From contig CAYTOI010000001.1 of assembly GCA_964439805.1 (NCBI GenBank), positions 3,573-67,572 on the forward strand: a stretch of DNA of 64,000 bases, in the 5' to 3' direction. This document shows, in pieces, positions 8,580-45,999 of the stretch (position 1 is its first letter; each line of letters opens with the position of its first letter). The notes under the pieces were generated by a model that saw only the letters and a list, made by a program, of their open reading frames with translations, did no database searches and had not been told where the DNA came from. The DNA is from an uncultured Pseudomonadales bacterium. GTDB taxonomy: Bacteria > Patescibacteriota > Microgenomatia > UBA1400 > MFAQ01. A program made the position numbers and the translations under genes.

Positions 8580-8581
8580 AG

Positions 8582-8655
8582 TAGCTGGGGCGAGACTCGA
8601 ACTCGCGCTCTTCGGGATATGAATCCGATGCTTTAACCAACTAAGCTACCCAGCC
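8582..8655 (-). tRNA. tRNA with CAT anticodon (elongator Met most likely; Ile2-lysidine type not excluded)
   Basis: Reverse complement folds as cloverleaf: acceptor GGCTGGG/CCCAGCT (G1-U72), D arm GCTT/AAGC, anticodon arm TCGGA-TTCATAT-CCCGA, T arm GCGAG-TTCGAGT-CTCGC; no encoded CCA. Confidence 0.8.
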
Positions 8656-8738
8656 AAAACTCCTCTTATTTTAGCATTACCCTAGCCTCAATTGCTATTT
8701 GAGTTCACTTCGTGCTAAAATAAGCCTGTTCTCTCTTT

Positions 8739-8809
8739 GCGGGGGGAAGGTAAGTATCTTGTCGGGCTCATAATCCGACTTAACTGGGGGGCGGAGCCTC
8801 AGCCCCGCA
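8739..8809 (+). other. GC-rich tRNA-like structured element (not a canonical tRNA)
   Basis: gcggggggaaggtaagtatcttgtcgggctcataatccgacttaactggggggcggagcctcagccccgca: perfect Met-type anticodon arm TCGGG-CTCATAA-TCCGA, 6-bp acceptor, 5-bp T stem, but D loop lacks GG and T loop is GGCGGAG not TTCRANY. Confidence 0.25.
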
Positions 8810-8812
8810 ACA

Positions 8813-9205
8813 CTATAGACTATTTGGATTAAATCCCAATACTTCAAGCCATTTCTGCCAATTTTTCAATTCTTTTGTTTTTAAATCTAGGCCCATAGTT
8901 TTAGAGCCCGAGCTTGGCATAATTACTACCACCTCACCACTTCTCTGCATGTTCAGCTTCTCCCGAACGAGCCTATCTTTATACTCTTCCGTGCTCACTA
9001 GCCTCAATTTTTCAGTCAAGAGCTGGTTTTTCTCTCTAGTAGCCAATAATCTCTTTTCAGTCTCCTCAATTCTAGAAAAACCTCTCTTTGTCTGCCAAAA
9101 GTCACGCACCATGGACAATATAAGCAGCCACAAAACAACAAGTAAAAGGCTTCTCATCCAGAGATTTTTGCCATCCACAGAACCCCCTTTTTTTGATACT
9201 TGCAT
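8813..9205 (-). CDS. septum formation initiator family protein (FtsB/DivIC-like)
   Basis: 130 aa; single N-terminal TM followed by coiled-coil and STEEYKDRLVREKLNMQRSGEVVV tail resembling FtsB/DivIC. Confidence 0.5.
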   Translation of the reverse strand: MQVSKKGGSVDGKNLWMRSLLLVVLWLLILSMVRDFWQTKRGFSRIEETEKRLLATREKNQLLTEKLRLVSTEEYKDRLVREKLNMQRSGEVVVIMPSSGSKTMGLDLKTKELKNWQKWLEVLGFNPNSL

Positions 9206-9240
9206 TTGGTAGACCTAGAATGTTATAATAAACGCCATAT

Positions 9241-10107
9241 ATGGAACAAAATGCTAAATCAGCTATAAATAGCTTCAAAGAGAACCTTGCCAAGCAAGGC
9301 AGAGCCTCTGCTACTATCTTAGCCTATTCTAAAGATATTGAGCAATTAACTGATTTTATTGGTAAAAGTGGCAAAGCAAGTCTAAAAGACATAACCAAAT
9401 CAGACATTGACTCTTTCAAGGAAGATTTAGCTCAAAAGAACTACACCACCAAGTCCATCTCTCGTAAAATCAACTCCATAAAGAGTTTTTTCAGTTACAT
9501 TCAAATCAATGGTGTTATTGTCGATAATCCAGCTACCGAAGTCACCCACCCTAAATACGACATCAAACCTCCAAGATTGTTAAACAAACTTGAATACAGA
9601 GCCTTAAGAGACGTTTGCAAAGACGATGCTCGTATGGCTGCTATAGTTGAACTCTTGCTTCAAACAGGCATGAGAATCTCCGAACTTGCCAACCTAAAAA
9701 TCAAGGACATCGACAGAACCTCAAACCAAGCCACAATCAGAGCTTTTGAGTCTCATCCAGAAAGATCTATCCCCTTCAACCAACCAGCCATGGAAGCTCT
9801 AGATCGCTACCTTGCCATTAGACCAAAAAGCTCTAATGACAGTGTTTTTATAACCAAAACTGGCAACACCTTCTTAATCCGCAATATCCGTTCAAATTTG
9901 GATCGCTATTTCCACATTGCTGGAATTCAAAACGCCAAAGTTAACGACTTAAGACACACTTTTATTGCTCAACAGCTAACTTCAGGTAGTCCTTTGGTCT
10001 ACATCAGTAAGCTCGTCGGACACAAAAGACTTTCTACAACTGAAAAATACTTGGAGTTTATTTCCGAAAAACCAGCCAAAGATAAGCCAAAACTTATCGA
10101 CCTGTAA
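9241..10107 (+). CDS. tyrosine recombinase, XerC/XerD-type
   Basis: 288 aa; N-terminal SAM-like core-binding domain; catalytic region with LRHTFIAQQL and LVGHKRLSTTEKYL (HxxR and Tyr). Confidence 0.75.
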   Translation: MEQNAKSAINSFKENLAKQGRASATILAYSKDIEQLTDFIGKSGKASLKDITKSDIDSFKEDLAQKNYTTKSISRKINSIKSFFSYIQINGVIVDNPATEVTHPKYDIKPPRLLNKLEYRALRDVCKDDARMAAIVELLLQTGMRISELANLKIKDIDRTSNQATIRAFESHPERSIPFNQPAMEALDRYLAIRPKSSNDSVFITKTGNTFLIRNIRSNLDRYFHIAGIQNAKVNDLRHTFIAQQLTSGSPLVYISKLVGHKRLSTTEKYLEFISEKPAKDKPKLIDL

Positions 10108-10462
10108 ACCTCTTTAAGGCCTCTAGCGTAGATTGAGATAGAAATCCCAATACGGCGTTCATCTTATCCATAGAACCTATTGCCAAGGCTAACCACCCGG
10201 ATACTTTTTTTCTTGAGTCCTCCACTATTAGAAAAGCGTTTTTGACGCCAGATATTTCTAGCTGTTCTCCAGTCACCTCATCTTCAACCAAAATAGTCAC
10301 CGGATTACCACTCTTACCCAAATTAAGATCTCCATTAATCATCATTTCTTGAGGCCAAGTTTTGTTTTGGACAAAATCAGTCTGCTCTTCAGCTACACTT
10401 GAAGCTCTTATCACTCGGTCTTGAAGTTTTTTGATTTTCTTCTTCTTAATCATTCTCCTCAT
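10094..10462 (-). CDS. hypothetical protein
   Basis: 122 aa ORF, Lys-rich N-terminus; no recognisable motif; overlaps recombinase 3' end by 14 nt. Confidence 0.3.
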   Translation of the reverse strand: MRRMIKKKKIKKLQDRVIRASSVAEEQTDFVQNKTWPQEMMINGDLNLGKSGNPVTILVEDEVTGEQLEISGVKNAFLIVEDSRKKVSGWLALAIGSMDKMNAVLGFLSQSTLEALKRFTGR

Positions 10463-10475
10463 TTTATCATTGATG

Positions 10476-10549
10476 TGGGCCGACCTGGATTCGAACCAGG
10501 GACATCGAAGGTATAAGCTTCGCGCTCTAACCAGCTGAGCTATCGGCCC
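10476..10549 (-). tRNA. tRNA-Ile with TAT anticodon (decodes AUA)
   Basis: Reverse complement GGGCCGATAGCTCAGCTGGTTAGAGCGCGAAGCTTATACCTTCGATGTCCCTGGTTCGAATCCAGGTCGGCCCA: 7-bp acceptor, canonical D and T arms (GGTTCGAATCC), anticodon loop CTTATAC. Confidence 0.8.
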
Positions 10550-10611
10550 AAAGTAAAGCTATTATATCAAGCACGTAACAGCAAAACCACGTACTAACCA
10601 CTTTGCACCAA

Positions 10612-12933
10612 TCACAGCTTCGACCTTCTCTCTATCTCCTCTTCTACCTCATCAGCATCTCTCCCAAACTTTAATCTAGACAGTTCTTTTACCATCTTAG
10701 CCACTTCTGGACTACCAGCGGCTTTTTCTGCCTTAAGATCTCTACCGACATTCATCGAAAAAGGAGGAACCGGAGTACCATTAATAATTGTTTTAACATA
10801 GATATTTTGAGCTGGAACGTTACCCAGATCAGCTTCGTTAAACACAGGTTCAAAATCCTTAACCAGTATTTGAGCATCTTGAACACCTACTCTGTAGGTC
10901 ATCAAGGTACCGGTATTCCCAAAGATAGCATCTCTTACTTGCTGATCCAGCTGACTCACAAACTGGTTAGCCATAATTAACCCCATGCCATACTTTCTAA
11001 CCTCAGAAAGCATCTGGGCAAAATCTGGGGTGGCAAAGTTTTGAAACTCGTCGATATAAAAGTAAAAAGGTCTTCGTTGTTCCTTTGGAGTATCCTGTCG
11101 AGAAAGTGCCGCCGCCAAAATTTTTGGCACCACTAGGTTACCCAAGAAACTAGAGTCTTCTTCTCCCAACAAACCCTTAGCAAGTTTCAAAAACACAATT
11201 TTCCCAGTATCCATGGCATCTCTAAAATTTAGAGTACTCTTGGCCTGACCAATGATATTACGAATCATTTTGTTTGTAACAAAGCGACCAAACTTAGAAG
11301 AAATATAGTCCAAGGTCTCACTCTTATGAAAATCACTTGTTTGAGCTATCTGATCAGTCCAGTATCGTCGAACTATTGGATCTTTAACCAAAGGAAGAAT
11401 CTCTTGAACGTATTTGGGATCAGTTAAGACTCTGTTTACTTCCACAAAAGTTGCCCCGGGCACACAACCAACGGTAAGCATGGCGTTACGCACAGAATGC
11501 TCAAACCTGGCTCCAACCATACCAGTTCTATTCGGATCAAACAGCTTATACATCAAGTTAATAATTGCCGAAGCCACCTGATACATCTCGTCATAATTCA
11601 AAACTTCCATGATATTAAAGCCTACAGGTCTTTCCTTATCAGATGGATCAAACAGAACAACATCTTCAGCTCTCTCTGGTGGAACTAGTTCTAGTAACTC
11701 TTCAATACCATCACCATGAGGCTCCATAAAACAAAGTCCTCTTCCCGCTCTCATGTCTTGAATAATCATCGACTTCAAAAGTTCAGTTTTACCTGTACCA
11801 GTTCTACCTATGATGTACATGTGCTTCATACGGTCTGTTTCACCCATATAAATGTTTCGCTCTTGACCTCTATATACAGATCTTCCTAACAACATTCCTT
11901 CAGAAGGAAAACCACCAGTTGCAGGGGCGCTCTTCGCCGTCAGCCAATAAATGTGTGGTGTCTCGATAGTTTTGTTAGGCAAATGCCAAACCGCCGCCAA
12001 TTCATCTGTCGACAATACTGAGTTGTTTCCCCACATGTTCTGATATCGATAAATAATATCAAGCATGAAGGAGTGCTTAAACTTAATTTTGTTACTACTA
12101 AAACTGTTTTGATTGCTATTAAACTGAGAAAAAACTCCTTTAACGTTGCTTAAATTCGCCTTGGCTGTTTCTCCATTCGGAGAAATACTAACAAGTCTTA
12201 TACTGGTCAAAAAACCCTGCTTACCACACTTATTTGTAATTGCTTCCAGTTCCTGGGGATTCATCTTAAACTTGGCTTTTTCAGGATCAGATTCGTCTTT
12301 CTTCAATTTGGAGACATAGCCCAGTCCAGACTTGGACCACTCACTTTCAGCCGGAGAAATCACTATTTGTACAATCATCGCTTCGTCATCGCTAAACTTT
12401 GCAAGAGAAGAAGTAAGTGAAGATAAAAAGTCTACCGGCATTTCCTTAAACGATTTAAGTGGCTTAAAACTCTCATTTTTTAGCACCAATTCAGCAAACT
12501 CAACTTTTGTGTCTTTATAAAAGACATTGTATTCATCCACCTTCAAAACTTGAGAGCCGGGATAAGTTCCAACAACCATTTTTTCAATCAGCTCTACATT
12601 GTTTTTATGACAAGAAATATAAAACCTAATATCCTCCTTTTTACCTACAATTTCCAAAGACAAGTGTTGTTGTGCTGCAAACTTCTGCCAAAAACCACCT
12701 TTTTTAAGGGAATACAAAGAACTAAACATTTGTTCCACCGCCTCTACTTTTATCTCATTATCTTTTGGCACGGCTATCTCCAAAAGTACAAAATTCATAC
12801 TAACCTCTTCCCTATTTCTAAACCGAAGCCAAATCACAAAAATCATCCAACAAAAAACAATCAAGGCTGTGATTATTAAGATTCCAAAACCCAAAACTGC
12901 CAAATAAAGCATCAGGTCTCCAGTATTAATCAT
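10612..12933 (-). CDS. type IV secretion/conjugation-type P-loop ATPase (VirD4/TraG coupling-protein-like or VirB4-like)
   Basis: 773 aa; two N-terminal TM helices; Walker A IIGRTGTGKTELL; Walker B-like FYIDEFQNF; RKYGMGLIMANQFVSQLD motif typical of FtsK/HerA-superfamily T4SS ATPases. Confidence 0.55.
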   Translation of the reverse strand: MINTGDLMLYLAVLGFGILIITALIVFCWMIFVIWLRFRNREEVSMNFVLLEIAVPKDNEIKVEAVEQMFSSLYSLKKGGFWQKFAAQQHLSLEIVGKKEDIRFYISCHKNNVELIEKMVVGTYPGSQVLKVDEYNVFYKDTKVEFAELVLKNESFKPLKSFKEMPVDFLSSLTSSLAKFSDDEAMIVQIVISPAESEWSKSGLGYVSKLKKDESDPEKAKFKMNPQELEAITNKCGKQGFLTSIRLVSISPNGETAKANLSNVKGVFSQFNSNQNSFSSNKIKFKHSFMLDIIYRYQNMWGNNSVLSTDELAAVWHLPNKTIETPHIYWLTAKSAPATGGFPSEGMLLGRSVYRGQERNIYMGETDRMKHMYIIGRTGTGKTELLKSMIIQDMRAGRGLCFMEPHGDGIEELLELVPPERAEDVVLFDPSDKERPVGFNIMEVLNYDEMYQVASAIINLMYKLFDPNRTGMVGARFEHSVRNAMLTVGCVPGATFVEVNRVLTDPKYVQEILPLVKDPIVRRYWTDQIAQTSDFHKSETLDYISSKFGRFVTNKMIRNIIGQAKSTLNFRDAMDTGKIVFLKLAKGLLGEEDSSFLGNLVVPKILAAALSRQDTPKEQRRPFYFYIDEFQNFATPDFAQMLSEVRKYGMGLIMANQFVSQLDQQVRDAIFGNTGTLMTYRVGVQDAQILVKDFEPVFNEADLGNVPAQNIYVKTIINGTPVPPFSMNVGRDLKAEKAAGSPEVAKMVKELSRLKFGRDADEVEEEIERRSKL

Positions 12934-20750: not shown

Positions 20751-22928
20751 ATGTCTAAGCAAAAAAATAGAAATCTATCTTTATTTTCCTATATCGGTCT
20801 ACCTTTGTACCGAATATTTCTTGTCGCTGCTATTTTCCTAATTTACCTATTTTCATTTACAAAACAAGCCCTTCAGTCAATTAAACTATCTGCCATTGCG
20901 AATCTTGTACTCAAGCTGTGGCAATCCATCCCCATTCCGTCATTCACGTCCCTCAGTAATTCATCTAGTCCTGCCAAAATCTGGCAAAAAAGAAACAAAA
21001 AACTCCACCCAAAAAAACTTGTCCCTCCAAAACGCCGCCCAGCATTTAGCATAAAGGCAGGAGTAACAACTATTGTTATCTTATTAATCACTTCTACCTC
21101 AATCTATTACTCCAATATGTTTTTGAAGTCACTACCTGATCCAAAAATCCTAGAAAATTTCCCATCCAAACTTTCTACTGTTATCTTGGACAGAAATGGA
21201 GTTCTTCTCTATCAAATATACAAAGACGAAAACAGAACAGTCGTCAATATCAACGAACTTCCAAATCACGTCAGAAATGCTTTTTTAGCTGCTGAGGACA
21301 AAGACTTTTATAAACATCATGGGTTTTCCATATCAGGACTGGCCAGGGCTGTATACAAAAATTTAATAAACGAAAGAATAGAGGGTGGTTCCACAATTAC
21401 CCAACAGTTAGTAAAAAACACCTTACTTACAAACGAAAAAACCTTTGTAAGAAAAGCAAAGGAACTCGTTTTGTCCTTACAAGTTGAGACCCTTTTTAGC
21501 AAAGACAAAATATTTGAAACTTATCTAAATCAAGTAGGTTTTGGTGGACCCGCTTATGGCATACAAGAAGCATCCCAACAGTATTTTAGTATTGACGCCA
21601 AAGATCTCTCAATTTCACAAGCTGCTTTTTTGGCCGGACTAACTCAAGCTCCTACAAAATACTCCCCTTTTGGAGAAAATTTACAGTTAGGACTCGAAAG
21701 ACAAAAGATTGTGCTTGGGCAAATGCTAAAAAACGGTTTTCTGACACAAAGCGAATTTGATAAGTCAAACAGTGAAAATATTGTTTTTAGATCAGCAAAA
21801 AATGAGATTATTGCTCCCCACTTTGTTATGTATGTTAGAAACCAGTTAGTGAATCAACTAGGCGAAAACATCGTGAACCAAGGGGGTCTCACTGTAATTA
21901 CCACCTTAGACGTCAATGTTCAAAAGAAAGCTCAGCAAATAGTCAGAGATGAAATAAAAAACATTGGAAGGTTAAACGTGTCAAATGGCTCCGCACTGGT
22001 TACTGATCCCAAAACAGGCGAAATTCTAGCGATGGTAGGGTCCACAGACTATTTTGATCTCAATCAAGATGGACAAGTCAACCTCACCACCTCACTAAGA
22101 CAGCCAGGCAGTTCCATAAAACCTCTTAACTACGCCCTAGCTTTCGAAAGAGGCAAAAAACCTACAGACACCATAGAAGACAAAGCAATTTCCGTCGTCT
22201 ACCCCAACAAACAAAGTTGGACTCCAAAAAACTACGACAACAAATTCCATGGAATAGTTACTCTAAAACAGGCCTTAGCCAATTCATACAACATACCCTC
22301 AGTTCTAATTTTAAAAGAAAACGGAATAGTAGAATTTGCCAAGCTGGCCCAAAAAATGGGAATCAGTACTTGGAATGATCCAACTAGATTTGGACTTTCA
22401 ATGGGACTGGGAAGCTTAGAGGTAAAAATGACAGACCTGGCTACAGCATACTCATCTTTTGCCAACGACGGAATTGCCACTCCACTAAATTCTATTAAAG
22501 AAGTAATCTCAAACAATCAAAAATTAAGTTCAATTTATAAATGCGAAAACTATCAAACCGAAAAAATCTCATCAACCACTGTTTTGGCTGAAGAAGATAA
22601 CTGCCTTCCTAGAAGAGTTATCAGCTCCCAAACAGCCAAACAAATTACAGAGATTCTAAGCGACAACCAAGCTCGTTCAAGCGCTTTTGGCTTTAACTCT
22701 GTACTCAATATCAAAGGGTTTAGTGTTGCTGTAAAAACCGGCACCAGCAACAACTTAAAAGACAACTGGACCATTGGCTATAACAAAGATTACCTGGTGG
22801 CTACCTGGGTAGGTAACAATGACAGCAGGCCCATGTCTAGCGTGGCGTCAGGCATTACAGGAGCTTCCCCCATATGGTCAAAGATATTTACTGGACTCCT
22901 CAAAAAACAACCCCTTGCCTCCAATTAA
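20751..22928 (+). CDS. class A penicillin-binding protein (second PBP1A-type paralog)
   Basis: 725 aa; EDKDFYKHHGF, GGSTITQQLVKN, SSIKPLNY, KTGTSNN. Confidence 0.85.
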   Translation: MSKQKNRNLSLFSYIGLPLYRIFLVAAIFLIYLFSFTKQALQSIKLSAIANLVLKLWQSIPIPSFTSLSNSSSPAKIWQKRNKKLHPKKLVPPKRRPAFSIKAGVTTIVILLITSTSIYYSNMFLKSLPDPKILENFPSKLSTVILDRNGVLLYQIYKDENRTVVNINELPNHVRNAFLAAEDKDFYKHHGFSISGLARAVYKNLINERIEGGSTITQQLVKNTLLTNEKTFVRKAKELVLSLQVETLFSKDKIFETYLNQVGFGGPAYGIQEASQQYFSIDAKDLSISQAAFLAGLTQAPTKYSPFGENLQLGLERQKIVLGQMLKNGFLTQSEFDKSNSENIVFRSAKNEIIAPHFVMYVRNQLVNQLGENIVNQGGLTVITTLDVNVQKKAQQIVRDEIKNIGRLNVSNGSALVTDPKTGEILAMVGSTDYFDLNQDGQVNLTTSLRQPGSSIKPLNYALAFERGKKPTDTIEDKAISVVYPNKQSWTPKNYDNKFHGIVTLKQALANSYNIPSVLILKENGIVEFAKLAQKMGISTWNDPTRFGLSMGLGSLEVKMTDLATAYSSFANDGIATPLNSIKEVISNNQKLSSIYKCENYQTEKISSTTVLAEEDNCLPRRVISSQTAKQITEILSDNQARSSAFGFNSVLNIKGFSVAVKTGTSNNLKDNWTIGYNKDYLVATWVGNNDSRPMSSVASGITGASPIWSKIFTGLLKKQPLASN

Positions 22929-22938
22929 CGCGACCTCT

Positions 22939-23253
22939 TCAAATCTTGTACTTAAGAAAAAACTTACTCTCTTTGTCAGAATCCTTATCAATTTCTTCAT
23001 TATCTTGATTCCTAGTGCTCTTGAGTTCTTGATTTCTTATGGGCTTCCCTTCTACCATCGCTTTCATCCAAAATCCCAAAGTCACGATAATGACTACAAG
23101 CATCACCCAAAAAATTACCTTTCTATCTTTAATCTTTTCCTCTTTTGATTTTTTCTTTTTTTCTTTTTTTTTAGGAACTGACTCAAGAGATTCTTCCTCT
23201 TCTTCTGTCATCTCATTGTTTGGAAACTTATTACTCATTATTTTTATATTCAA
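22939..23253 (-). CDS. small hypothetical membrane protein with octamer-repeat-derived segment
   Basis: 104 aa; Lys/Glu-rich N-terminus, one TM, NQELKSTRNQD segment; overlaps dehydrogenase 3' end. Confidence 0.25.
   Translation of the reverse strand: MNIKIMSNKFPNNEMTEEEEESLESVPKKKEKKKKSKEEKIKDRKVIFWVMLVVIIVTLGFWMKAMVEGKPIRNQELKSTRNQDNEEIDKDSDKESKFFLKYKI
23004..23037. repeat. degenerate octamer-repeat copy
   Basis: cttgattcctagtgctcttgagttcttgatttct. Confidence 0.4.
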
Positions 23254-24211
23254 TATTTACTAAACAGGAAGGCTGTCTACCCTCCAGAGCATCTTTTAGA
23301 TTATCCACCAAAACTCTAGCCATAGAAAGCCTTGCTTCTACTGTTGCTGAAGCTGTATGTGGTGTCAACACTACATTCTTCATCCTCAATAATTCTTCTG
23401 GAATTTCCATTTCATTTTCAAAAACATCAAGTCCAGCTCCAGCAATAACTTTATTTTTTAAACAATCTATTAAGTCAGCTTCATTTACTATTCCCCCTCT
23501 AGCTGTATTTATAAACAAAGCTGACTTTTTCATCAAAGAAATTTCCTTTTTTGTTATGATGTGTTTCGTTTCCGCGTTTAACGCAAGAGAAACGCTAACA
23601 ACATCAGAAAGCTCCAGTAACTTCTCCAGACTATGATAAACACACTCATTTTCCGCTTCAAATTCTTCATCTCTCGTTCTATTAAAGTAAATTACTTTCA
23701 TTCCCACTGCTTTGGCTAGCCTTGCCGTCCACCTCCCAATTCTACCCAAACCAATCACTCCTATCACCTTATCTTTTACACTCGTCCCAAGCAACAAATC
23801 TGGTTCCCAACCTTTGTACCCATGGCTTCTAATTAAACTATCCCCTTCTACCACTCGCCTATACAAAGCAAAAATTAAAGCAATAACGTGTTCAGCCACT
23901 GATTCGGTCAAAACTCCAGGAGTATTTGTAATACAAATTCCTCTTTTGGTTGCTTCTTTAACATCTATATTGTCATACCCAACCGCGTAATTACTTATCA
24001 CTTTTAAGTTTTTTCCAGCCGCATCCATTACCTCAGCGTCAATCTTTTCAGTAAGTAGTGAAACAATAGCAACTGAATCTTTTACGCCAGCAAGCAACTC
24101 TTTTCTAGAAATATTTTTTCCCTGATACACTTCTACTTCAAATTTTTCTTTCAGCCCACCCAAATACTTCTCCAAAAAAATATGCGTCACAAACACCTTT
24201 GGTTTATCCAT
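23231..24211 (-). CDS. D-isomer-specific 2-hydroxyacid dehydrogenase (glycerate/phosphoglycerate dehydrogenase-like)
   Basis: 326 aa; NAD-binding GVIGLGRIGRWTARLA; catalytic-domain layout of the family. Confidence 0.8.
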   Translation of the reverse strand: MDKPKVFVTHIFLEKYLGGLKEKFEVEVYQGKNISRKELLAGVKDSVAIVSLLTEKIDAEVMDAAGKNLKVISNYAVGYDNIDVKEATKRGICITNTPGVLTESVAEHVIALIFALYRRVVEGDSLIRSHGYKGWEPDLLLGTSVKDKVIGVIGLGRIGRWTARLAKAVGMKVIYFNRTRDEEFEAENECVYHSLEKLLELSDVVSVSLALNAETKHIITKKEISLMKKSALFINTARGGIVNEADLIDCLKNKVIAGAGLDVFENEMEIPEELLRMKNVVLTPHTASATVEARLSMARVLVDNLKDALEGRQPSCLVNIEYKNNE

Positions 24212-24228
24212 ACCTTCATTTAATCACA

Positions 24229-25209
24229 TCACACCCATCCCTCTACAGACTTTAGCTTCTTCTTCATCCACTTTTCCATTTCGTCTTTACTCAACAGCCC
24301 TGCCTTCGCTCCCATCTTTGTCACCACACTACTACCATTGGCAAGGCCCATCTTCAGCATCTTTTCATCACTAACATAATTTATTAGCCCCTCAACAAAT
24401 CCACACACAAACGCATCTCCCGCACCAGTATCATCAACAGACTTGTTTAAAAAAGTGTTCATTTTAACCCACTTACCAGACCTAATTAACGTAGCTCCTC
24501 TCTTCCCATCAGTTACGGCAATTACCCGCACCCCAGAATCAGATAACATTTTAAAAATATCTTGTTCGTTTTCAAAATCAACCCCACAAACAACACTCGC
24601 CTCAGACCGATTCAAAATTAGCGCTTCAATCTTGGAAAGTAATGGCCACAATTTTCCTGACTCTATTTCAGACTTTCCAGGGTTCAACCCAATTCTTATG
24701 CCATTTGTATAACAATAAGAAACAATGTCTTCAAGTAAGTCCATTCTCCCTCCCAAACTAGATATTTGTACCCAGTCAGCATTTTTAAATTGATTCCAAT
24801 CAATTTTTTTGGTATCAATTTCTAAGCTTTCACCTCTAAAAGTAATTATCGATCTTTGCCCATCCCCATTAATAAGTACAGTGGACACACCAGTATTTTT
24901 ACTTCCACTTTGTACCATCGACAAATCTACTTGATATGAGTTCATTTCCTCCATAAAAATTTTCCCCATACTATCTTCCCCAACCTTTGTAACCATCTTT
25001 ACTGCCTCACCCAATCTTTTCAAACCAACAGCAACGTTACTTCCCCCTCCACCGCTAGTCATCAATCCCTCTTCAGCTTCAATTTTTCCGCCAAGCACTT
25101 CACATAGAGCCACGCCACCATGAACAGCAGAATTTTTTACAATCTTAAACTGACTAGACTTCATCAACACATCCATAACACTTGCCCCAATTACCACTAT
25201 TCTTTGCAT
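24229..25209 (-). CDS. PfkB-family carbohydrate kinase (ribokinase-like)
   Basis: 326 aa; GGGGSNVA and DTGAGDAF PfkB signatures. Confidence 0.75.
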   Translation of the reverse strand: MQRIVVIGASVMDVLMKSSQFKIVKNSAVHGGVALCEVLGGKIEAEEGLMTSGGGGSNVAVGLKRLGEAVKMVTKVGEDSMGKIFMEEMNSYQVDLSMVQSGSKNTGVSTVLINGDGQRSIITFRGESLEIDTKKIDWNQFKNADWVQISSLGGRMDLLEDIVSYCYTNGIRIGLNPGKSEIESGKLWPLLSKIEALILNRSEASVVCGVDFENEQDIFKMLSDSGVRVIAVTDGKRGATLIRSGKWVKMNTFLNKSVDDTGAGDAFVCGFVEGLINYVSDEKMLKMGLANGSSVVTKMGAKAGLLSKDEMEKWMKKKLKSVEGWV

Positions 25210-25253
25210 ATCATCATTCTAACAAACACAGCATCGTTACGATAAAATAAGCT

Positions 25254-25703
25254 GTGCTCAAACCGTTACACCACCTCAAACCAAAAACCGGCAAAGAAAT
25301 TCCCTTTATTATTCTCATAAGTTTCTTGGTTACCTTTTTAGTTTCCAGACTGGTAGTCTTTTACGGGCCAACGTCTAACTTTTATTTAAATGTCAAAGGT
25401 ATTCATGTTCACCACCTAGCTTATGGCATTTGCCTACTTGGAATAGTCGGATTTCTTAGTTTAGTTTTGGACAGAACTGAAAAGGTTAGGTTGCGTCTTT
25501 CCGTTTGGTACGGAATTGCCTTAGGGCTTGCCTTTGACGAATTTGCCATGTGGATTCAACTAGAAGATGTCTACAGAGATCGTTCTACCTACGACGCCAT
25601 CATGATCATCACCCTCATCATGCTCAACGTAGTTTACTTCAGCGATTTCTGGAAAAAATGGGGCCACCACCTGAGATCTCTCCTCCACAAACTCACAAGT
25701 TAA
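25254..25703 (+). CDS. hypothetical membrane protein
   Basis: 149 aa, 3-4 TM; no motif. Confidence 0.4.
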   Translation: MLKPLHHLKPKTGKEIPFIILISFLVTFLVSRLVVFYGPTSNFYLNVKGIHVHHLAYGICLLGIVGFLSLVLDRTEKVRLRLSVWYGIALGLAFDEFAMWIQLEDVYRDRSTYDAIMIITLIMLNVVYFSDFWKKWGHHLRSLLHKLTS

Positions 25704-25717
25704 AATATTTTTATTCT

Positions 25718-25753
25718 CAATAAAATATCAACCGGGCTAGTTTCTCAATAACA
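25718..25753 (-). repeat. direct repeat copy 1: noncoding remnant duplicating aldolase C-terminal codons (attL-like)
   Basis: Reverse complement reads ...V I E K L A R L I F Y stop, matching true aldolase C-terminus VTEKLARLIFY; ~27/32 nt identical to 27761-27793. Confidence 0.55.
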
Positions 25754-25796
25754 TTATTTCTGATTTATATCATTAAGTACTCAAACATAATATTTA

Positions 25797-27113
25797 ATGT
25801 TATTATTTGTCATGCCAGAACAGGAATATTCAGTAGGTACTGAAGGCCTCAGGGCTGCACAAGATGTAATCTCACAAAAAGTTTTCGACAGGGCTTTACA
25901 AATAAATCCTTATGGTGAACAACCTCACGACCTCGCCATTGAAGCAGCAGAACTCGAGACAGAAGCAACCTACCCTTCACTAGAACGTCTTTCACCTAAA
26001 GCTCAAGAATATGCAAAACGCGATCTGGATAAATTAACGGAAAATCTAAAAGCATTAAGGAAACTATCTAATACGTCAACACTAGATTATTCCACAATAG
26101 GAAAAATTGAATCGTTGGTGGGTGATAATCCGGTTTTGGTTGATAAAAATCATGATGTTCTATTTCAAAAAGCCTGGGCACCGACAGGAGAACAAGAACT
26201 GCCCAGTGCGCCTTTCTTTATAACAGCAGAATATGAAGCGCTTCGTTTAAAAATATTAAGTGAAACAGAAAGAGTTATTTCTAAAGTTGACCCTTACGAC
26301 AAATACTCCCAAAGCTCTACAGAGATAAACAGAGCACGCCTGAAGGCACTTGAGGATACTTCACCAGACTCTTCATTAAGAATTAAGGTTGATGCGGCAA
26401 ACAAGAAAATTGCAGAACTAGACTTCGGAGAATGGCCAATTTATCATGGTTTGGGAATAGAGTCTTTACTGGACGTGCTTGATAGTGATAGCTTATTGTG
26501 TCGCTCAAAACAAATCAATAGTAGAGGAAAGGCAAGACTCAATACTTCTCGAGGGAAACGGACAGACCAAGAAATGTTTAATGTTTCTTTTTCCAACATA
26601 CCAGATCGGGGTTATACAGATACATTTAAATACGGTAACAGTGACATAGCATTTGTGACTCCTGATGATATCTGGGTAGTTTCTGATTTAGGATCATTGA
26701 TCAAAGGAGGTGAAAGATTCTTTTATACCGACGGATGGCAAATGATGGGGAAAAAGGATCAGGATGGATTCAAGTTGTCATTTAGTGAAGATCCATTTGT
26801 ACTGCTTGTTACTGAAGAGGCGTTAACAAAAATAAAAAATCGTATCGCAACCGACATGAGATTTGCGGATAAAGATATGGACGGATGGATTGATAATCAT
26901 GTAGTCATTATCCCCAATTTTCCTTCCAAGACTGGTGATCTAAATTTTAATATGGATGAATCGGTAAAACATAAAATTAAACAAAAGTTTCAAGAGAATA
27001 ATCCGAACCAAAAACTTCCCAAGAATAATGGTTATCTAGTACCATCCGGCGAACTATTTGATGACCAAGGTGGTAAAAAAGTAATGTCTTTTTGTTGGAT
27101 CGAAAAACAATAG
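25797..27113 (+). CDS. hypothetical protein (islet cargo, no recognisable domain)
   Basis: 438 aa; visibly higher GC than flanks; no motif recognised. Confidence 0.5.
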   Translation: MLLFVMPEQEYSVGTEGLRAAQDVISQKVFDRALQINPYGEQPHDLAIEAAELETEATYPSLERLSPKAQEYAKRDLDKLTENLKALRKLSNTSTLDYSTIGKIESLVGDNPVLVDKNHDVLFQKAWAPTGEQELPSAPFFITAEYEALRLKILSETERVISKVDPYDKYSQSSTEINRARLKALEDTSPDSSLRIKVDAANKKIAELDFGEWPIYHGLGIESLLDVLDSDSLLCRSKQINSRGKARLNTSRGKRTDQEMFNVSFSNIPDRGYTDTFKYGNSDIAFVTPDDIWVVSDLGSLIKGGERFFYTDGWQMMGKKDQDGFKLSFSEDPFVLLVTEEALTKIKNRIATDMRFADKDMDGWIDNHVVIIPNFPSKTGDLNFNMDESVKHKIKQKFQENNPNQKLPKNNGYLVPSGELFDDQGGKKVMSFCWIEKQ

Positions 27114-27284
27114 ACAGTATTAGCTAATTGCAAAAAGCTGTTGGTAAACCGCTACAGTTTTCATGTTAGGTCTCCATTACAATGTGTTAAGGTCTAAACA
27201 ACTTTCTTAGTTAGTACGATTGTCGATTCTTGCGTTTATTATGTTATAGTAAATTACTAATATCAAAAGCGCATCACAACAAAT

Positions 27285-27761
27285 ATGTCATCTGAAAACG
27301 CTCCCACCCCTGACAACTCCAATCATTTTTCTGAAATTGAAAGACAGTATAGTAGCTCTGTCAAAAAAACTGAGATAGTTTTTGGAGATGAAAAGAAAAA
27401 AATATCACTACTAGTCACAGAGCCACAAAGCACAAACTTTATGGAAAAAGCAAAAGATGCAATTAAAAATTTACAGGATGGACAAAAACAAATAATTGTT
27501 ACTGAAAATGGAGATGTATACGAAGTAAAAACAACTGGATATTTTTCAGAACGATCTAACGCAGACAACCTAATAGACATCGCCAAATCCTTGCCTACAA
27601 CTGGAAATTGGAATTACGAGACAGAAAAGAAAGTGCGGCAAGAATACAAAGGGCAGTCGAGTGATGTTGACACACTAAATCTAAAATACATTGGTAAATA
27701 CAAAGACAAATTGGACCCAAAAAAAACTGCTGAAGAATATTTAATGTTTCAACTGGCTTAG
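27285..27761 (+). CDS. hypothetical protein (islet cargo)
   Basis: 158 aa, hydrophilic; no motif. Confidence 0.45.
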   Translation: MSSENAPTPDNSNHFSEIERQYSSSVKKTEIVFGDEKKKISLLVTEPQSTNFMEKAKDAIKNLQDGQKQIIVTENGDVYEVKTTGYFSERSNADNLIDIAKSLPTTGNWNYETEKKVRQEYKGQSSDVDTLNLKYIGKYKDKLDPKKTAEEYLMFQLA

Positions 27762-27793
27762 TAAAATATCAACCGAGCTAGTTTTTCTGTAAC
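27758..27793 (-). repeat. direct repeat copy 2 (functional 3' end of aldolase gene, attR-like)
   Basis: gtaaaatatcaaccgagctagtttttctgtaac; encodes VTEKLARLIFY*. Confidence 0.55.
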
Positions 27794-28495
27794 CTCATTT
27801 GGGTCAGGGTCTTGCCAAACATTTCTCCCTATCGCAATTCCTTTTGCCCCGGCTTTCATCACTCCACTCACTTCTTCTTCGAGGTTTTCCCAATCTGTTT
27901 TTTTACCCCCTTGCGCCAACACTCCTGTTTTCCCAGCCGCTTTTACTACCCAACTAAAACTTTCTACATCTCCCGTGTATGGCACTTTTACATAGTCCGC
28001 ATTAAGCTCCAACCCTAGTCTTGCCCCATAGGCCACCGTGTCTCTTTCTGACTCTCTACCTAGCACCTTAGAGCCTCGTGGATACATCCAAGCAATCACT
28101 TCCAATCCCTTTGCGTGCGCCTCATCTTCTATTTTTGAAAATTCTACAAGCATTTCTTCTTCGTGCTCACTTCCTACATATATTGTGTACCCAACAGCTT
28201 TTGCACCAAGTTCAATTGCCTTGTCGACAGTACATAGCTGAAGCGACAATGGTTCTTCGCTATAAAACGAAGTCTTACCATTTAGTTTTACAATCAAAGG
28301 AATATCACTCTTTTTGTCGTAGTACCTTGCCGCTACTCCCTCTTGAAAAACAACTCCTGTATAGTATCCATTTTTGGCTATCTTCATTATGTAGCTCGGA
28401 TCCACATTTTTTTCATCAAAATCAATTGGACCGTGTTCAAAACCTTGGTCATAAGCCAAAATCATTACCTTACCGTTTCTTGCTAACTTACTCAT
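27758..28495 (-). CDS. class I fructose-bisphosphate aldolase, archaeal type (DhnA/FbaB family)
   Basis: 245 aa; TIM-barrel aldolase with Schiff-base Lys region VKVPYTG; family typical of archaea and small-genome bacteria. Confidence 0.7.
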   Translation of the reverse strand: MSKLARNGKVMILAYDQGFEHGPIDFDEKNVDPSYIMKIAKNGYYTGVVFQEGVAARYYDKKSDIPLIVKLNGKTSFYSEEPLSLQLCTVDKAIELGAKAVGYTIYVGSEHEEEMLVEFSKIEDEAHAKGLEVIAWMYPRGSKVLGRESERDTVAYGARLGLELNADYVKVPYTGDVESFSWVVKAAGKTGVLAQGGKKTDWENLEEEVSGVMKAGAKGIAIGRNVWQDPDPNEVTEKLARLIFY

Positions 28496-29480
28496 TTTTA
28501 TAAACTAGTTTTTTAATTAAATTAATTAAGTTCACACTTGTCAGTCCGTATTTTTGCATCAGTTCCTCTGGTTCCCCACTTTCTCCAAACCGGTCTCTCA
28601 TCCCCAGTCTTATCATCGGTACCGGACAGTTTTCCGAAAGCACTTCAGCGACAGCACTTCCCAAGCCACCAATTATTGAATGTTCTTCAGCTGTAATTAC
28701 TTTTCCCGTTTTCTTTGCCGATTTTACAATTGCATTTACATCTATTGGTTTTATCGTATGAACATTTACCACCTCCACCTCTATTGTTCCAGATAGTTTC
28801 TCAGCAGCTACCATTGCCTCATAAACCATAGCTCCACAAGCAAATATCGTAATGTCTTTTCCACCCCTTAAAACCTGAGCCTTACCTATTTCAAATGGAG
28901 TATCAACTGTCGTAATTATTTCTCTAGCTGGCTTTGTCATCCTCATGTACACAGCTCCTTTTTTCTCTGACATTGCCCAAACCGCTTTTTTTACTTGCTC
29001 ATAATCTGCAGGAACTAAAATAGTTAAGTTTGGAAGCACTCTAGCAATAGCCAAGTCATCAAAACTTTGTTGATTTGCCCCATCTACTCCATTTCCAAAA
29101 CCAGAGTGCCCTCCAATTATTTTTACATTTTCATTGGTAAGACAAACGGATACCCGCAGTTGCCCCCAGTTGTTCCCAGGATTAAAACAAGCAATCGAGT
29201 TCACAAATGGTATATATCCACTCATGGCCATCCCAGCCGCCACCCCCATCATGTTCTGCTCCTGAATTCCCATTTCAATTAGTCTATTTGGAAATTCTTT
29301 TTTAAAACTTTCAAGCTTAAGGCTATCCAGCAAATCCGCCACTAGAGCAACAATTCTCGGGTCTTTTCTCGCCACTTCCACGACAGCTTCACCATATCCA
29401 TCTCTCATTGGCTTCTTTGATAACTTTCCAAAGTCCTCCACCAAATTCATCTCCTTATTAATCATTACTGATCCTCCCAT
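28488..29480 (-). CDS. transketolase, C-terminal subunit (pyrimidine-binding + C-terminal domain)
   Basis: 330 aa; GHSGFGNGVDGANQQSFDDLAIARVLPNLTILVPAD typical of split transketolase B subunit. Confidence 0.85.
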   Translation of the reverse strand: MGGSVMINKEMNLVEDFGKLSKKPMRDGYGEAVVEVARKDPRIVALVADLLDSLKLESFKKEFPNRLIEMGIQEQNMMGVAAGMAMSGYIPFVNSIACFNPGNNWGQLRVSVCLTNENVKIIGGHSGFGNGVDGANQQSFDDLAIARVLPNLTILVPADYEQVKKAVWAMSEKKGAVYMRMTKPAREIITTVDTPFEIGKAQVLRGGKDITIFACGAMVYEAMVAAEKLSGTIEVEVVNVHTIKPIDVNAIVKSAKKTGKVITAEEHSIIGGLGSAVAEVLSENCPVPMIRLGMRDRFGESGEPEELMQKYGLTSVNLINLIKKLVYKNE

Positions 29481-35704: not shown

Positions 35705-36417
35705 TTAATCAAAAAATAAGCTATTCCAAAAAGGAAAATAGCCATTAATAATCTAAGCTGTTTATTGTATTTATGTTCCCACTCCTTCATCTCTACCACC
35801 TTTTTACCTCCTGCCATCACAAGCAAAATAACAAGTATTGGCAATATAAAAACAAAGTTATAGTACAAAAAATATATCAGCACCTGCCACATAGGTAGAC
35901 CTGACTTTGCCAAGTAAGAAGTCGTGCCAATATAAACAGGTAGCATACAAGGTGTCGAAAATGCCGTAGTCAATACTCCAACAACGACAGCCATTCCAGA
36001 ACCAGCTTTCATCAGAACCAAGTTAATTTTTTCATAGCCTTTACTACTCATTCTCAGGTGAATCGGAAAGTTATCCCAAAACACATCTTTAAATTGAATT
36101 AGTCCTGCCACTGCCAAAATTCCCGCCATTACATATTTAAATACACTGGCCAACCACAAACGTTGCAAGTAGAATGCCAATCCGTAAAAAAATAATCCCA
36201 AAACCAAATAAGTCACAAAAACACTAGCCAAATAAATCAACCCGTCTCTCAGTATTCTTGAGTTCTTGATTCCTTGAGTTCTTGAGTTCTTTTTTGGATC
36301 GTTTTGCGATCCAAAAACAAGTAAATATCCCAAAAAAGTAATCATCATCCCTATCCCACAGGGATTAAGTCCGTTTACCAAAGCCGCACCTGTAAGGGCT
36401 ACTAAATTTATACTCAT
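35701..36417 (-). CDS. CcdA/DsbD-family thiol-disulfide transporter membrane protein; carries in-frame octamer-repeat insert
   Basis: 238 aa, 6 TM, conserved Cys in TM1 (NPCGIG) and TM4 (TPCMLP); insert KNSRTQGIKNSR in a loop. Confidence 0.7.
   Translation of the reverse strand: MSINLVALTGAALVNGLNPCGIGMMITFLGYLLVFGSQNDPKKNSRTQGIKNSRILRDGLIYLASVFVTYLVLGLFFYGLAFYLQRLWLASVFKYVMAGILAVAGLIQFKDVFWDNFPIHLRMSSKGYEKINLVLMKAGSGMAVVVGVLTTAFSTPCMLPVYIGTTSYLAKSGLPMWQVLIYFLYYNFVFILPILVILLVMAGGKKVVEMKEWEHKYNKQLRLLMAIFLFGIAYFLIK
36257..36290. repeat. 8-bp tandem repeat x4 in frame inside ccdA-like gene
   Basis: cttgagttcttgattccttgagttcttgagttct. Confidence 0.8.
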
Positions 36418-37052: not shown

Positions 37053-37438
37053 TTTTTTGTCGCTTTTAATAACGCTCTATAAGCCAAAGTAGCACACTTC
37101 ATTCTACCTGCATTTATCTCTCCACCCATCAATTCTACAATTCCCTCCTCACTAATTTTTTCAATCTCAGAAATTTTCATCCCTATTACTTTTTCCGAAA
37201 GCATACTAGCAGCGGCTGTTGAAATTGCACACCCTACCCCTCGCCACCTAATTTCTTTGATTACCAGCTCTTCATCATCTTGAGTTCTTGATTCCTTGAT
37301 TCCTTGAGTTCTAATCTGTATTTGTATTACATCCCCACAACTAGAATTCGACTCATTTATAGTCACATCCGCCCCCTCCATCTCCCCAAAATTTCTAGGG
37401 TTTTTGTAGTGATCAATTATTTCATCGCGGTAGTCCAT
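37049..37438 (-). CDS. sufU: Fe-S cluster scaffold SufU/NifU-like; carries in-frame octamer-repeat insert
   Basis: 129 aa; conserved Cys in SCGD, GCAIS, KCATLA; insert RTQGIKESRTQDDEE. Confidence 0.8.
   Translation of the reverse strand: MDYRDEIIDHYKNPRNFGEMEGADVTINESNSSCGDVIQIQIRTQGIKESRTQDDEELVIKEIRWRGVGCAISTAAASMLSEKVIGMKISEIEKISEEGIVELMGGEINAGRMKCATLAYRALLKATKK
37279..37312. repeat. 8-bp tandem repeat x4 in frame inside sufU
   Basis: cttgagttcttgattccttgattccttgagttct. Confidence 0.8.
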
Positions 37439-37441
37439 GGT

Positions 37442-38734
37442 CTATATAAATACTTTTGGTACTTCTTTAATTTTTTCTACCAAATAGTTAATTTCTTCTT
37501 TTGTATTGTAAACATAAAAAGTGGCTCTCACCATAGCAGGAATCCCAAAACTTGTAACAAGTGGCGCAGCACAATGCTGACCGGACCGAACCGCAATTCC
37601 AAAATTATTTAGCACCTGAGCCACATCATGAGAGTGCACCCCTTTTACATTAAAGGCCAACGCCCCACCTCTTTCTTCTGGGTCTCTCACTCCATAAACC
37701 TCCACCAAACCTTCATCCTCCAGCACTTTAAATTTTTCCAAAGCATAACCAATTAATTCTTTCTCGTGTTCTCTCACATTGTCCATACCCAAGTTTTCCA
37801 AATAATCCACTGCCGCTCCCAAACCAATTATTCCAGCAATGTCAGGTGTCCCTGCTTCAAACTTACTAGGAATCTCTGCCCAGGTAGTATTTTCCAGCCG
37901 TACTTCTCCAATCATGTCTCCTCCGTACAAAAATGGGTCCATTTTGTTTAGTAAATCTTTCTTTCCCCAAAGTACTCCCGTCCCTGTTGGTCCCAGCATT
38001 TTGTGACCAGAAAAAGCAACAAAGTCAACTGATAATTTTGTAACATCCAATTTCATATGTGGCACCATTTGGGATGCATCCAAAACAATTACAGCTTCAG
38101 GATTTTTCGCTTTTACTTTCTCTACCAACATTTTAATATCTGGCAAAGTTCCAATTGCATTACTTGCTCCAGTCAAAGCAAACAACCTCACTTTCCCATC
38201 AGCAATCAAATCATCCATACTACCAATTAACACATTATCTTGAGTTCTTGAGTTCTTGAGTTCTTGAGTTTTTTCGACCAACTTTCCTTTTTGGTCGACT
38301 TCAACCACCCTAAATTCTGCACCTTTTTCTTTGCAAAGCACCTGCCAAGGAACAAAGTTTGAGTGATGCTCCAATCGCGTCACCAAAACTGCGTCCCCCT
38401 CTTTAATATTTTTCTTTCCCCAGGAATACATCACCAAGTTAAGCGATTCGCTAGCGTTTCTCGTAAAGATTATTTCTTCAGTTCGTCCTCCAATAAACTT
38501 CGCAACTTTTTCTCTGGCCTCGTCTACCATTTTTGTAGACTCTACTGACATGTCGTAAACTCCTCGGTGAATATTGGCATTATTGTTTCTATAATAGTCA
38601 TCCATTGCTCTCAAAACACTCTCAGGTTTCTGACTTGTGGCTCCACTATCCAAATAAACCAAATCTTGCCCATTAACTTTGCGCTTCAAAATCGGAAAAT
38701 CCTGCCTTATTTTATTTACGTCTAACATGTTCAT
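37442..38734 (-). CDS. sufS: cysteine desulfurase SufS; carries in-frame octamer-repeat insert
   Basis: 430 aa; PLP-lysine SGHKMLGPTG; C-terminal catalytic Cys region; insert KTQELKNSRTQD. Confidence 0.85.
   Translation of the reverse strand: MNMLDVNKIRQDFPILKRKVNGQDLVYLDSGATSQKPESVLRAMDDYYRNNNANIHRGVYDMSVESTKMVDEAREKVAKFIGGRTEEIIFTRNASESLNLVMYSWGKKNIKEGDAVLVTRLEHHSNFVPWQVLCKEKGAEFRVVEVDQKGKLVEKTQELKNSRTQDNVLIGSMDDLIADGKVRLFALTGASNAIGTLPDIKMLVEKVKAKNPEAVIVLDASQMVPHMKLDVTKLSVDFVAFSGHKMLGPTGTGVLWGKKDLLNKMDPFLYGGDMIGEVRLENTTWAEIPSKFEAGTPDIAGIIGLGAAVDYLENLGMDNVREHEKELIGYALEKFKVLEDEGLVEVYGVRDPEERGGALAFNVKGVHSHDVAQVLNNFGIAVRSGQHCAAPLVTSFGIPAMVRATFYVYNTKEEINYLVEKIKEVPKVFI
38239..38272. repeat. 8-bp tandem repeat (perfect CTTGAGTT x4) in frame inside sufS
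   Basis: cttgagttcttgagttcttgagttcttgagtttt. Confidence 0.85.
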
Positions 38735-39428: not shown

Positions 39429-39932
39429 TTATTTTACCCCCAAAAAACCTTTAATAATCAAATTTTCTGCCTCAGCTCTGTTTATCCCCCTTGTCTCCAA
39501 ATAAAACAATTGGTCCTCATCTATTCTCCCTACGCTAGCCGAATGACTTGCTTTAACTTCATTATTTAATATCTCTAGTTCCGGCTCAGCTACCGCCATA
39601 CTTTTATCATCAAGTAGTAGTAGCTTCATCGACAAAAAACTATCACTTTGTTTTGCCCCTTCTGCAATTTTCACCAATCCCTTAATTTTTACCCTTGCTC
39701 CACCTCTTACCACCCCTTTTACATCAACTCTGCACTTTGTTTTCCCTACTTTGTGTTCGGACAAAAGATTGATTACATAGTCCCCCTCAGTCTCTGCCAC
39801 AACAACACCAAGTAGCTCTTTCTCTTCCCCTTTGTCATTCATAACCACTTTAAAGTCATAGACCCCAGGTCTTTCAATTACAAACCTCTCAATATCTTGA
39901 GTTCTTGAGTTTTGGAAGTTTTGAGTTTTCAT
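39429..39932 (-). CDS. SufD-like Fe-S assembly protein (short, C-terminal region only); N-terminus made of octamer repeat
   Basis: 167 aa; C-terminal DEDQLFYLETRGINRAEAENLIIKGF matches SufB/SufD C-terminal signature; starts MKTQNFQNSRTQD. Confidence 0.55.
   Translation of the reverse strand: MKTQNFQNSRTQDIERFVIERPGVYDFKVVMNDKGEEKELLGVVVAETEGDYVINLLSEHKVGKTKCRVDVKGVVRGGARVKIKGLVKIAEGAKQSDSFLSMKLLLLDDKSMAVAEPELEILNNEVKASHSASVGRIDEDQLFYLETRGINRAEAENLIIKGFLGVK
39896..39932. repeat. octamer-repeat tract spanning the sufD-like start codon
   Basis: cttgagttcttgagttttggaagttttgagttttcat. Confidence 0.7.
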
Positions 39933-45934: not shown

Positions 45935-45963
45935 AAAACTAATTTGCTGAATTATTTTCATTA

Positions 45964-45999
45964 TTTTGAGTTTTTGAGTTCTTGAGTTCTTGAGTTTTT
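45964..45999. repeat. octamer-repeat tract in 5' leader immediately upstream of prmC start
   Basis: ttttgagtttttgagttcttgagttcttgagttttt then ATG at 46000. Confidence 0.75.

Follow-up and report, generated by a model that had tools for sequence, protein, structure and literature searches.

The DNA analyzed here is a 64,000-nt stretch, called the window below, of contig CAYTOI010000001.1 (GenBank assembly GCA_964439805.1) from an uncultured bacterium of the Candidate Phyla Radiation (CPR; Patescibacteriota, Microgenomatia). Within it, a 2-kb islet lies at the 3′ end of a gene for a DeoC/LacD-family aldolase (Table 1). The islet is filled by two plus-strand open reading frames (ORFs) of 438 and 158 aa, which leave margins of 37 nt and 0 nt and no space for an integrase remnant. 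At one border, the stop codon of the aldolase gene overlaps that of the 158-aa ORF. At the other, a copy of the aldolase end, here called the stub, stands with its stop codon 13 nt away from that of a convergent membrane-protein gene. The aldolase gene, part of a conserved LOG-tktN-tktC-aldolase block, retains an intact reading frame despite the islet. The displaced end is noncoding: its frame has no start codon and is closed by a TAA 16 codons upstream. Because the aldolase end is repeated on both sides of the islet, the site is empty in 10 related genomes, and the cargo is absent from all of about 40 relatives, we interpret the islet (a unit of 2,041 nt) as a lineage-specific insertion into the last 14 aldolase codons that supplied the gene with a replacement 3′ end.

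The two copies of the aldolase end form a direct repeat of 44 nt with a spacing of 2,041 nt and 36 identical positions. Read on the minus strand, the copy beside the membrane-protein gene is NNVIEKLARLIFY-stop and the copy that ends the aldolase gene is NEVTEKLARLIFY-stop. Local alignment of the two copies scored 28, against a maximum of 15 for shuffled sequence, and a degenerate pattern for EKLARLIFY-stop had exactly two matches in the window and none in 100 shuffles. A 14-nt block of identity is unique to these two places, and no other gene-end duplication was detected in the window, making the aldolase-end repeat the sole one of its kind. An earlier note on this DNA, made from the letters alone, had described the repeat, the two ORFs between its copies, and the lack of an integrase among them. 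All three descriptions proved correct, except that the repeat is slightly longer than reported there and its coordinates were off by 1 to 2 nt; only two ORFs are present, and neither has a recombinase domain. The note had also argued that the similarity does not obviously stem from low-complexity, AT-rich sequence, and the alignment scores agree. An artifact, whether chance similarity in AT-rich DNA or a misassembly or chimeric join, might be suspected in a genome that is AT-rich (38% GC) and metagenome derived. Against this stand the margin over shuffled sequence (none of the 100 shuffles yielded two pattern matches), the preserved reading frame and stop codon, a composition like that of the rest of the window, and the inability of a 44-nt repeat at 82% identity to mislead an assembler. 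In addition, a Logan contig assembled independently from run SRR12487046 is identical over positions 22797 to 28544, and the arrangement of the islet is therefore not an assembly artifact. We consider an artifactual origin to have a negligible chance.

Differences between the copies point to selection on both. The copies differ at 8 of 42 coding nucleotides, with only two amino acid changes and the stop codon kept (P of about 0.006 under random substitution). The four differences that fall within the last 30 nt are silent without exception, a stop-to-stop change included (P of about 0.003). Both nonsilent codons are at the stub's 5′ end. In this 5′ third (NNVI), 9 of 14 nt resemble the aldolase end, and the encoded residues were never seen in functional relatives; the stub Ile occupies a position that is S, T, or A in all 29 distinct tails of relatives. 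These alignments show that the stub departs from a normal aldolase tail in its 5′ part. The EKLARLIFY tail itself is common to both copies and occurs in none of the 29 distinct tails, which suggests a source close to this lineage for the incoming copy. Since a silent-only pattern is unlike that of a stub decaying in place, both ends must have evolved as working aldolase ends, either in separate lineages or on an element selected to restore the gene. The insertion must also be recent enough for the stub not to have decayed. The same pattern bears on the idea of a duplication in place (such as a long target-site duplication of a transposon) followed by decay of one copy: decay should be random, yet the last 30 nt changed only silently and kept the stop codon. 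For a transposon in particular, neither a transposase nor terminal inverted repeats were found at the islet ends, and the repeat is 44 nt long, 18% diverged, and biased toward silent changes. This length is far beyond that of any target-site duplication known to us.

Table 1. Coordinates of the islet and its surroundings, of other features in the window, and of related regions in other genomes
Feature	Location	Strand	Remark
Stub (displaced, noncoding aldolase 3′ end; candidate attR)	25716-25759	-	Stop codon 25717-25719
Working aldolase 3′ end (second repeat copy; candidate attL)	27757-27800	-	Stop codon 27758-27760
Identity blocks within the repeat	14 nt: 25721-25734 = 27762-27775; 8 nt: 25736-25743 = 27777-27784		Candidate crossover region
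Cargo gene 1, 438 aa	25797-27113	+	Probable true start ATG 25812, giving 433 aa
Spacer between cargo genes, 171 nt	27114-27284		
Cargo gene 2, 158 aa, hydrophilic	27285-27761	+	Stop codon 27759-27761
Target gene, DeoC/LacD-family (class I type) aldolase, 245 aa	27758-28495	-	Pfam E value 1.9e-42
Convergent membrane-protein gene, 149 aa	25254-25703	+	Abuts the aldolase gene directly in relatives
13-mer AATATTTAATGTT	25789-25801; 27736-27748; 26573-26585		Third copy with one mismatch
GAACTCAA arrays	About 1049-1097, 2839-2895, 4959-5015, 22990-23054, 36243-36299, 37265-37321, 38225-38281, 39882-39930, 45951-46007	-	
Tyrosine recombinase, 288 aa	9241-10107	+	Phage_integrase and N-terminal SAM-like domains
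tRNA-Met	8581-8655		Flanks the recombinase gene
tRNA-Ile(TAT)	10475-10549		Flanks the recombinase gene
TraG/VirD4-like coupling-protein homologue, 773 aa	10612-12933	-	Near the recombinase gene
Direct repeat, 300 nt	61631-61930 / 62644-62943		79% identity
ORFs overlapped by the 300-nt repeat	61671-62081; 62684-63466	+	
Slot cargo, L002	933-1442		169-aa ORF
Slot cargo, L004	6739-7716		HExxH-motif protein, 325 aa
Slot cargo, L031	5732-6685		HExxH-motif protein (317-325 aa across L004 and L031)
Slot cargo, L032	1129-4007		Glyoxalase/alginate-lyase/GNAT trio
Region listed with the filled slots, L009	5211-6044		
Homologue of cargo gene 1, L022 (JACPEJ010000004.1)	8001-9950	Opposite	649 aa

A query with the aldolase protein yielded 16 loci among species-representative genomes and another 24 in metagenomes, about 40 relatives in all. 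Every one belonged to the CPR/Microgenomates (Collierbacteria-like), with protein identities of 49 to 80% and the closest at 75 to 80%. The conserved gene order in these genomes is LOG, tktN, tktC, aldolase, a slot of variable content, PfkB kinase, 2-hydroxyacid dehydrogenase, and penicillin-binding protein. In 10 loci, the convergent 149-aa membrane-protein gene directly follows the aldolase gene, with stop codons -11 to +3 nt apart. This is the empty site that the earlier note had predicted, seen here in relatives 72 to 80% identical in the aldolase protein and thus not at strain level. The stub stop lies a comparable 13 nt from the membrane-protein gene, which indicates that the stub holds the ancestral position of the aldolase end. 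In a further 10 loci, the kinase gene comes directly after the aldolase gene; in 6 (the L001 type), a longer membrane-protein gene stands there (263 to 279 aa where ORFs were listed) that is unmatched to the 149-aa one; and in 4, unrelated cargo lies between the aldolase and membrane-protein genes. This cargo abuts the aldolase stop codon within a few nucleotides, as the 158-aa ORF does here, and the 169-aa and 325-aa slot proteins are unrelated to the 438-aa protein. Neither islet gene was present in any of the roughly 40 loci, so that none carries the gene pair without a repeat remnant, and neither an aldolase-end repeat nor an integrase was found at this site in any of them, occupied slots included. 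Different Microgenomates genomes hold unrelated cargo between the aldolase gene and its convergent neighbor, free of flanking repeats and integrases, which marks this slot as a hotspot of repeated gene gain. An ancestral presence of the two genes, with loss in all sampled relatives, would be easier to accept in a thinly sampled lineage whose closest aldolases are 75 to 80% identical. It would require independent loss in each of the roughly 40 relatives and would not create a stub. Together with duplication in place, this origin is in our estimate highly improbable.

As to mechanism, we favor, with a probability of roughly 0.5, a cargo cassette flanked by attachment (att) sites that lacked an integrase of its own and was inserted by site-specific recombination. 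The aldolase 3′ end would have served as attB and recombined with a matching attP on a small circular element without an integrase. The incoming DNA would have carried its own aldolase end, which now terminates the gene, and the resident end, displaced by 2 kb, would persist as the noncoding stub beside the membrane-protein gene. Crossover would most likely have fallen in the 8-nt identity block, AAACTAGC. Such a cassette would be of the cis-mobilizable element (CIME) type known from streptococci, either moved by a recombinase acting in trans or left over from a larger element. We rank this model first because silent and nonsilent changes are split around the 8-nt block as it predicts. On the translated side of the block, all three changes are silent, and on the untranslated side, four of five are nonsilent, as expected of an attP arm free of coding constraint. 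Further points in its favor are the exact fit of the repeat to the islet borders, the blocks of identity within it, the odd residues in the 5′ third of the stub, the precedent of integrase-less CIMEs at the aldolase gene fda in streptococci, and the presence of a tyrosine recombinase in the window.

Several observations weigh against site-specific recombination. No integrase or excisionase was found in or beside the islet, whose two ORFs contain no recombinase domain or motif, and the sole recombinase in the window is encoded 16 kb away, has Xer-like architecture, and lies between tRNA genes. The EKLARLIFY-stop pattern had no match in viral and metagenome contigs, where neither an attP nor a second copy was found. 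The 8- and 14-nt identity blocks, both short, show no obvious dyad symmetry. By tblastn, the 438-aa ORF had no match in phages and plasmids, and the 158-aa ORF had none in phages. The homologue loci of the 438-aa protein that we examined lack a conserved small neighbor, an integrase, and flanking repeats. In ten relatives, the slot holds unrelated cargo or a different membrane-protein gene with no repeat. Finally, islet composition is indistinguishable from that of the host: GC content is 36.3% in the islet and 37.8 ± 1.8% in the window (41.9% in the aldolase gene and 41.6% in the membrane-protein gene), and the tetranucleotide distance of the islet to the window is ordinary, with 78% of 2-kb windows at least as deviant. 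The contention of the earlier note that the islet is GC-richer than its flanks is thus mistaken. Its proposal of an integrated cassette or decayed integrative element with a replacement 3′ end fares better in one part than in the other: the empty sites uphold the insertion and the new end, and the character of an element is not upheld (no integrase, attP, or second copy). Insertion of the Xer/dif type, as practiced by integrative mobile elements exploiting Xer (IMEX), was considered separately and rejected, as the repeat does not resemble dif and the cumulative GC skew does not switch at this locus.

The occupied, repeat-free slots of relatives make an integrase-independent route a serious rival. 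In this scenario, which resembles homology-facilitated illegitimate recombination (HFIR) in natural transformation, the donor would be a close relative with both genes already in the slot. Homologous exchange within the aldolase gene at one end would be coupled to an illegitimate joint 30 to 44 nt before the resident stop codon. The working 3′ end would then be donor DNA, the stub the resident end, and the repeat a by-product rather than a pair of att sites. HFIR requires no integrase, couples a single homologous anchor in a conserved gene to one illegitimate junction, and introduces foreign genes beside the anchor, in keeping with the lack of a recombinase and the host-like composition of the islet. 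Unrelated cargo in four relatives and the longer membrane-protein gene in six, all without repeats, suggest that genes are routinely exchanged here without site-specific scars, and the 158-aa ORF abuts the aldolase stop codon as tightly as does the cargo of relatives. If the two ends were orthologues from related lineages, silent-only change in the last 30 nt would be expected; a closely related donor would account for the host-like composition; and a tail found in both copies and in none of the roughly 40 relatives implies that the donor was close. The competence-associated protein DprA is present in a related CPR genome (L022). Other features are harder to accommodate. HFIR does not predict the partial, noncoding-like similarity in the 5′ third of the stub, which would have to reflect chance or microhomology (roughly 3 to 10%) or localized decay. 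A donor-type genome was not found, the 158-aa ORF being a singleton, and RecA-dependent anchoring would be inefficient at the high silent divergence seen between the copies. Moreover, in HFIR experiments, recipient DNA is usually lost at the joint, not duplicated. We therefore rank site-specific recombination above the homology-anchored route, which is possible but somewhat unlikely.

Searches of the islet for noncoding elements were negative: Rfam gave no match, the predicted fold of the spacer between the cargo genes was not significant (z = -1.2), and promoter and terminator scans did not rise above shuffled sequence. The AT-rich 13-mer AATATTTAATGTT occurs just inside both islet ends: one copy covers the initial ATG of the 438-aa ORF, and the other, where the 158-aa ORF ends, stops 8 nt short of the repeat. 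Weighed as an islet-end signal, it was dismissed as a likely chance occurrence in AT-rich DNA.

The larger cargo protein belongs to a small and previously unannotated family. A word-indexed search of 5.8 billion proteins matched the 438-aa protein only to itself, and a profile search of that index brought up just three distant homologues. An exhaustive HMMER scan of 1.84 billion representatives yielded about 10 relatives, the best 41% identical over the full length, along with a fragment 63% identical. Alignment of the homologues suggests that translation starts at the ATG at 25812. The C-terminal domain (about residues 200 to 438), which begins at a YHG(T) motif, is conserved in this CPR-restricted family. 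H217, Q239, K254, E259, D312, and several Gly, Pro, and Phe residues are invariant; R236 is nearly so; and Y273 is conserved in all 10 closer homologues, whereas the three distant ones have a deletion there. Neither cargo protein had a match in Pfam, PHROGs, NCBIfam, or PADLOC, and searches of the PDB by sequence and profile returned nothing relevant, with DarT not retrieved by the 438-aa protein. The earlier statement that the cargo has no recognizable domains thus stands for these four libraries and falls for the 438-aa protein, which has a small family and a modeled domain. That domain comes from an AlphaFold model built with a 12-sequence alignment, in which the predicted local distance difference test (pLDDT) score was 80 to 94 for residues 200 to 438 and the helical N-terminal half was of low confidence (a single-sequence model, with a pLDDT of 37, was not used). 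The top Foldseek matches of the model were three DarT entries and human Tpt1, with weak statistics (E values of 0.04 to 1.5), and a search of viral folds in BFVD gave weak matches only, to uncharacterized proteins. As modeled, the C-terminal domain resembles a DarT/Tpt1-like ADP-ribosyltransferase fold and would represent a new family rather than a DarT.

In Thermus DarT, H13 and Y71 are the NAD-binding His and Tyr, and R51 and E160 are catalytic (PMC9967889). The invariant H217 and, 56 residues later, Y273 (lacking in the three distant homologues) parallel H13 and Y71, at a DarT-like spacing. Unlike DarT, the 438-aa family has no invariant Glu at an E160-like position, its invariant acidic residues being E259 and D312. 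The 438-aa protein carries a 200-residue helical N-terminal extension, has no macrodomain (DarG) neighbor, and did not match the DarT sequence family in all-library Pfam, NCBIfam, and PADLOC scans, which were not targeted at DarT. Some homologues, again unlike DarT, are fused to a methyltransferase-like domain. The RNA 2′-phosphotransferases Tpt1/KptA show a more distant structural likeness to the 438-aa protein than DarT does. In the long family members (P0005, P0007, and P0009; 650 to 698 aa; L050 to L053), the fusion takes the form of a C-terminal extension of about 220 residues with the class I methyltransferase-like motif ILYIGCGFDRLP (Methyltransf_11 E value of 0.002, below the Pfam cutoff). 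Their sequences suggest a two-activity enzyme that modifies nucleic acids or small molecules.

Homologues of the 438-aa protein stand alone among housekeeping genes of unrelated kinds: one lies between mreC and mreB (Candidatus Blackburnbacteria), and others lie between def and fmt, beside Ldh_2 and LemA genes, and between genes for a HAD hydrolase and an AIR-synthase-related protein. In the first of these, a homologue on the opposite strand splits the mreBCD cluster. Its 3′ end overlaps that of mreB by 9 nt, the same convergent-overlap geometry as between the 158-aa ORF and the aldolase gene. No flanking repeats surround the homologue insertions in this genome or in L020. The gene after the L020 homologue was considered as a relative of the 158-aa protein and rejected; it is LemA.

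The smaller cargo gene has gene-like GC content by codon position (GC1 > GC2 > GC3), and its product is a singleton among the 5.8 billion proteins searched. No domain, Macro included, was matched by the 158-aa protein in the four libraries or in PDB searches, and an immunity or antitoxin role for it is speculation. DarT is a toxin. The earlier suggestion that the cargo pair is a toxin/immunity-like module therefore gains one supporting fact, the DarT-like fold predicted for the large protein. It loses ground in that the homologues are lone genes, unlike a toxin that needs an antitoxin, that the 158-aa singleton has no macrodomain, and that the pair is not conserved, homologue loci having no conserved small partner. 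The boldest version of this idea would make the islet an active, integrase-less CPR cassette that targets the aldolase 3′ end and carries a new two-gene toxin/immunity or defense module. In it, a DarT-like nucleic acid ADP-ribosyltransferase with a novel N-terminal regulatory domain would be neutralized by a small partner that is not a macrodomain. We regard this as doubtful, with only a small chance of being correct.

Other features were noted elsewhere in the window. An 8-nt unit, (GAACTCAA)n, where n = 2 to 4, forms short tandem arrays with degenerate flanking units in at least nine places, all of them on the minus strand, which encodes most genes. At 8 nt, the period is no multiple of 3. 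GAT(A/T)ATG or TTG closes several of the arrays, immediately ahead of a potential start codon, and the unit could be a 5′-leader or regulatory repeat. The region of the Xer-like tyrosine recombinase, from the first of its flanking tRNA genes through the coupling-protein homologue (8581 to 12933), may be what is left of an integrative or conjugative element. Near the far end of the window, the two ORFs overlapped by a 300-nt direct repeat are probably paralogous.

To our knowledge, mobile elements and routes of gene gain are poorly documented in the CPR/Patescibacteria. The locus described here offers a dated, base-resolved gene gain in such a genome, with a scar that separates resident from incoming DNA, at a slot that has been refilled repeatedly in related genomes. 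Its larger cargo gene defines a rare unannotated family, with about 10 cluster representatives among 1.84 billion. If active, these proteins would extend the NAD-dependent enzymes that modify nucleic acids by a new branch, found in uncultured bacteria. As a signature, the insertion is of a known, textbook kind, and current understanding is not overturned. What is new is its occurrence in a CPR genome without a recombinase, together with a rare unannotated family whose predicted fold is DarT/Tpt1-like.

Two groups of known elements provide the closest comparisons for the insertion. At icd in Escherichia coli, e14 and phage 21, like the islet, insert inside the 3′ end of a metabolic gene and supply a replacement end. 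In e14, the displaced original end is likewise kept at the far side, as the C-terminal pseudogene fragment icdC, and the icd and icdC ends differ mainly by synonymous and conservative changes (PMC13626634). However, e14 is 15 kb long and has its own integrase and excision functions, and its excision has been observed, whereas the islet is 2 kb long, has no recombinase, and duplicates a stretch of only 44 nt. In streptococci, elements of the ICESt3 family and integrase-less CIMEs of 1.2 to 13 kb occupy the 3′ end of the aldolase gene fda, and classical CIMEs contain cargo genes only, bounded by att direct repeats (PMC7563491). The islet resembles these CIMEs in its target at an aldolase 3′ end, its cargo-only content, its flanking repeats, and its size, as 2.0 kb falls within the 1.2- to 13-kb range. 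It departs from them in its host, a CPR/Microgenomates bacterium of a different phylum from the streptococci that carry fda. CIMEs also share att sites with a resident or related integrative and conjugative element (ICE) or integrative and mobilizable element (IME), often in tandem, whereas neither a partner element nor a shared att site was found for the islet in the roughly 40 loci and the collections searched, its lineage being thinly sampled. The streptococcal fda gene encodes a class II aldolase. Because fda and the DeoC/LacD-family gene appear unrelated, the aldolase target that the two systems have in common is best seen as a coincidence of function. On the anatomy of the locus, the CIME appears to be the best match for a 2-kb, two-gene islet without an integrase.

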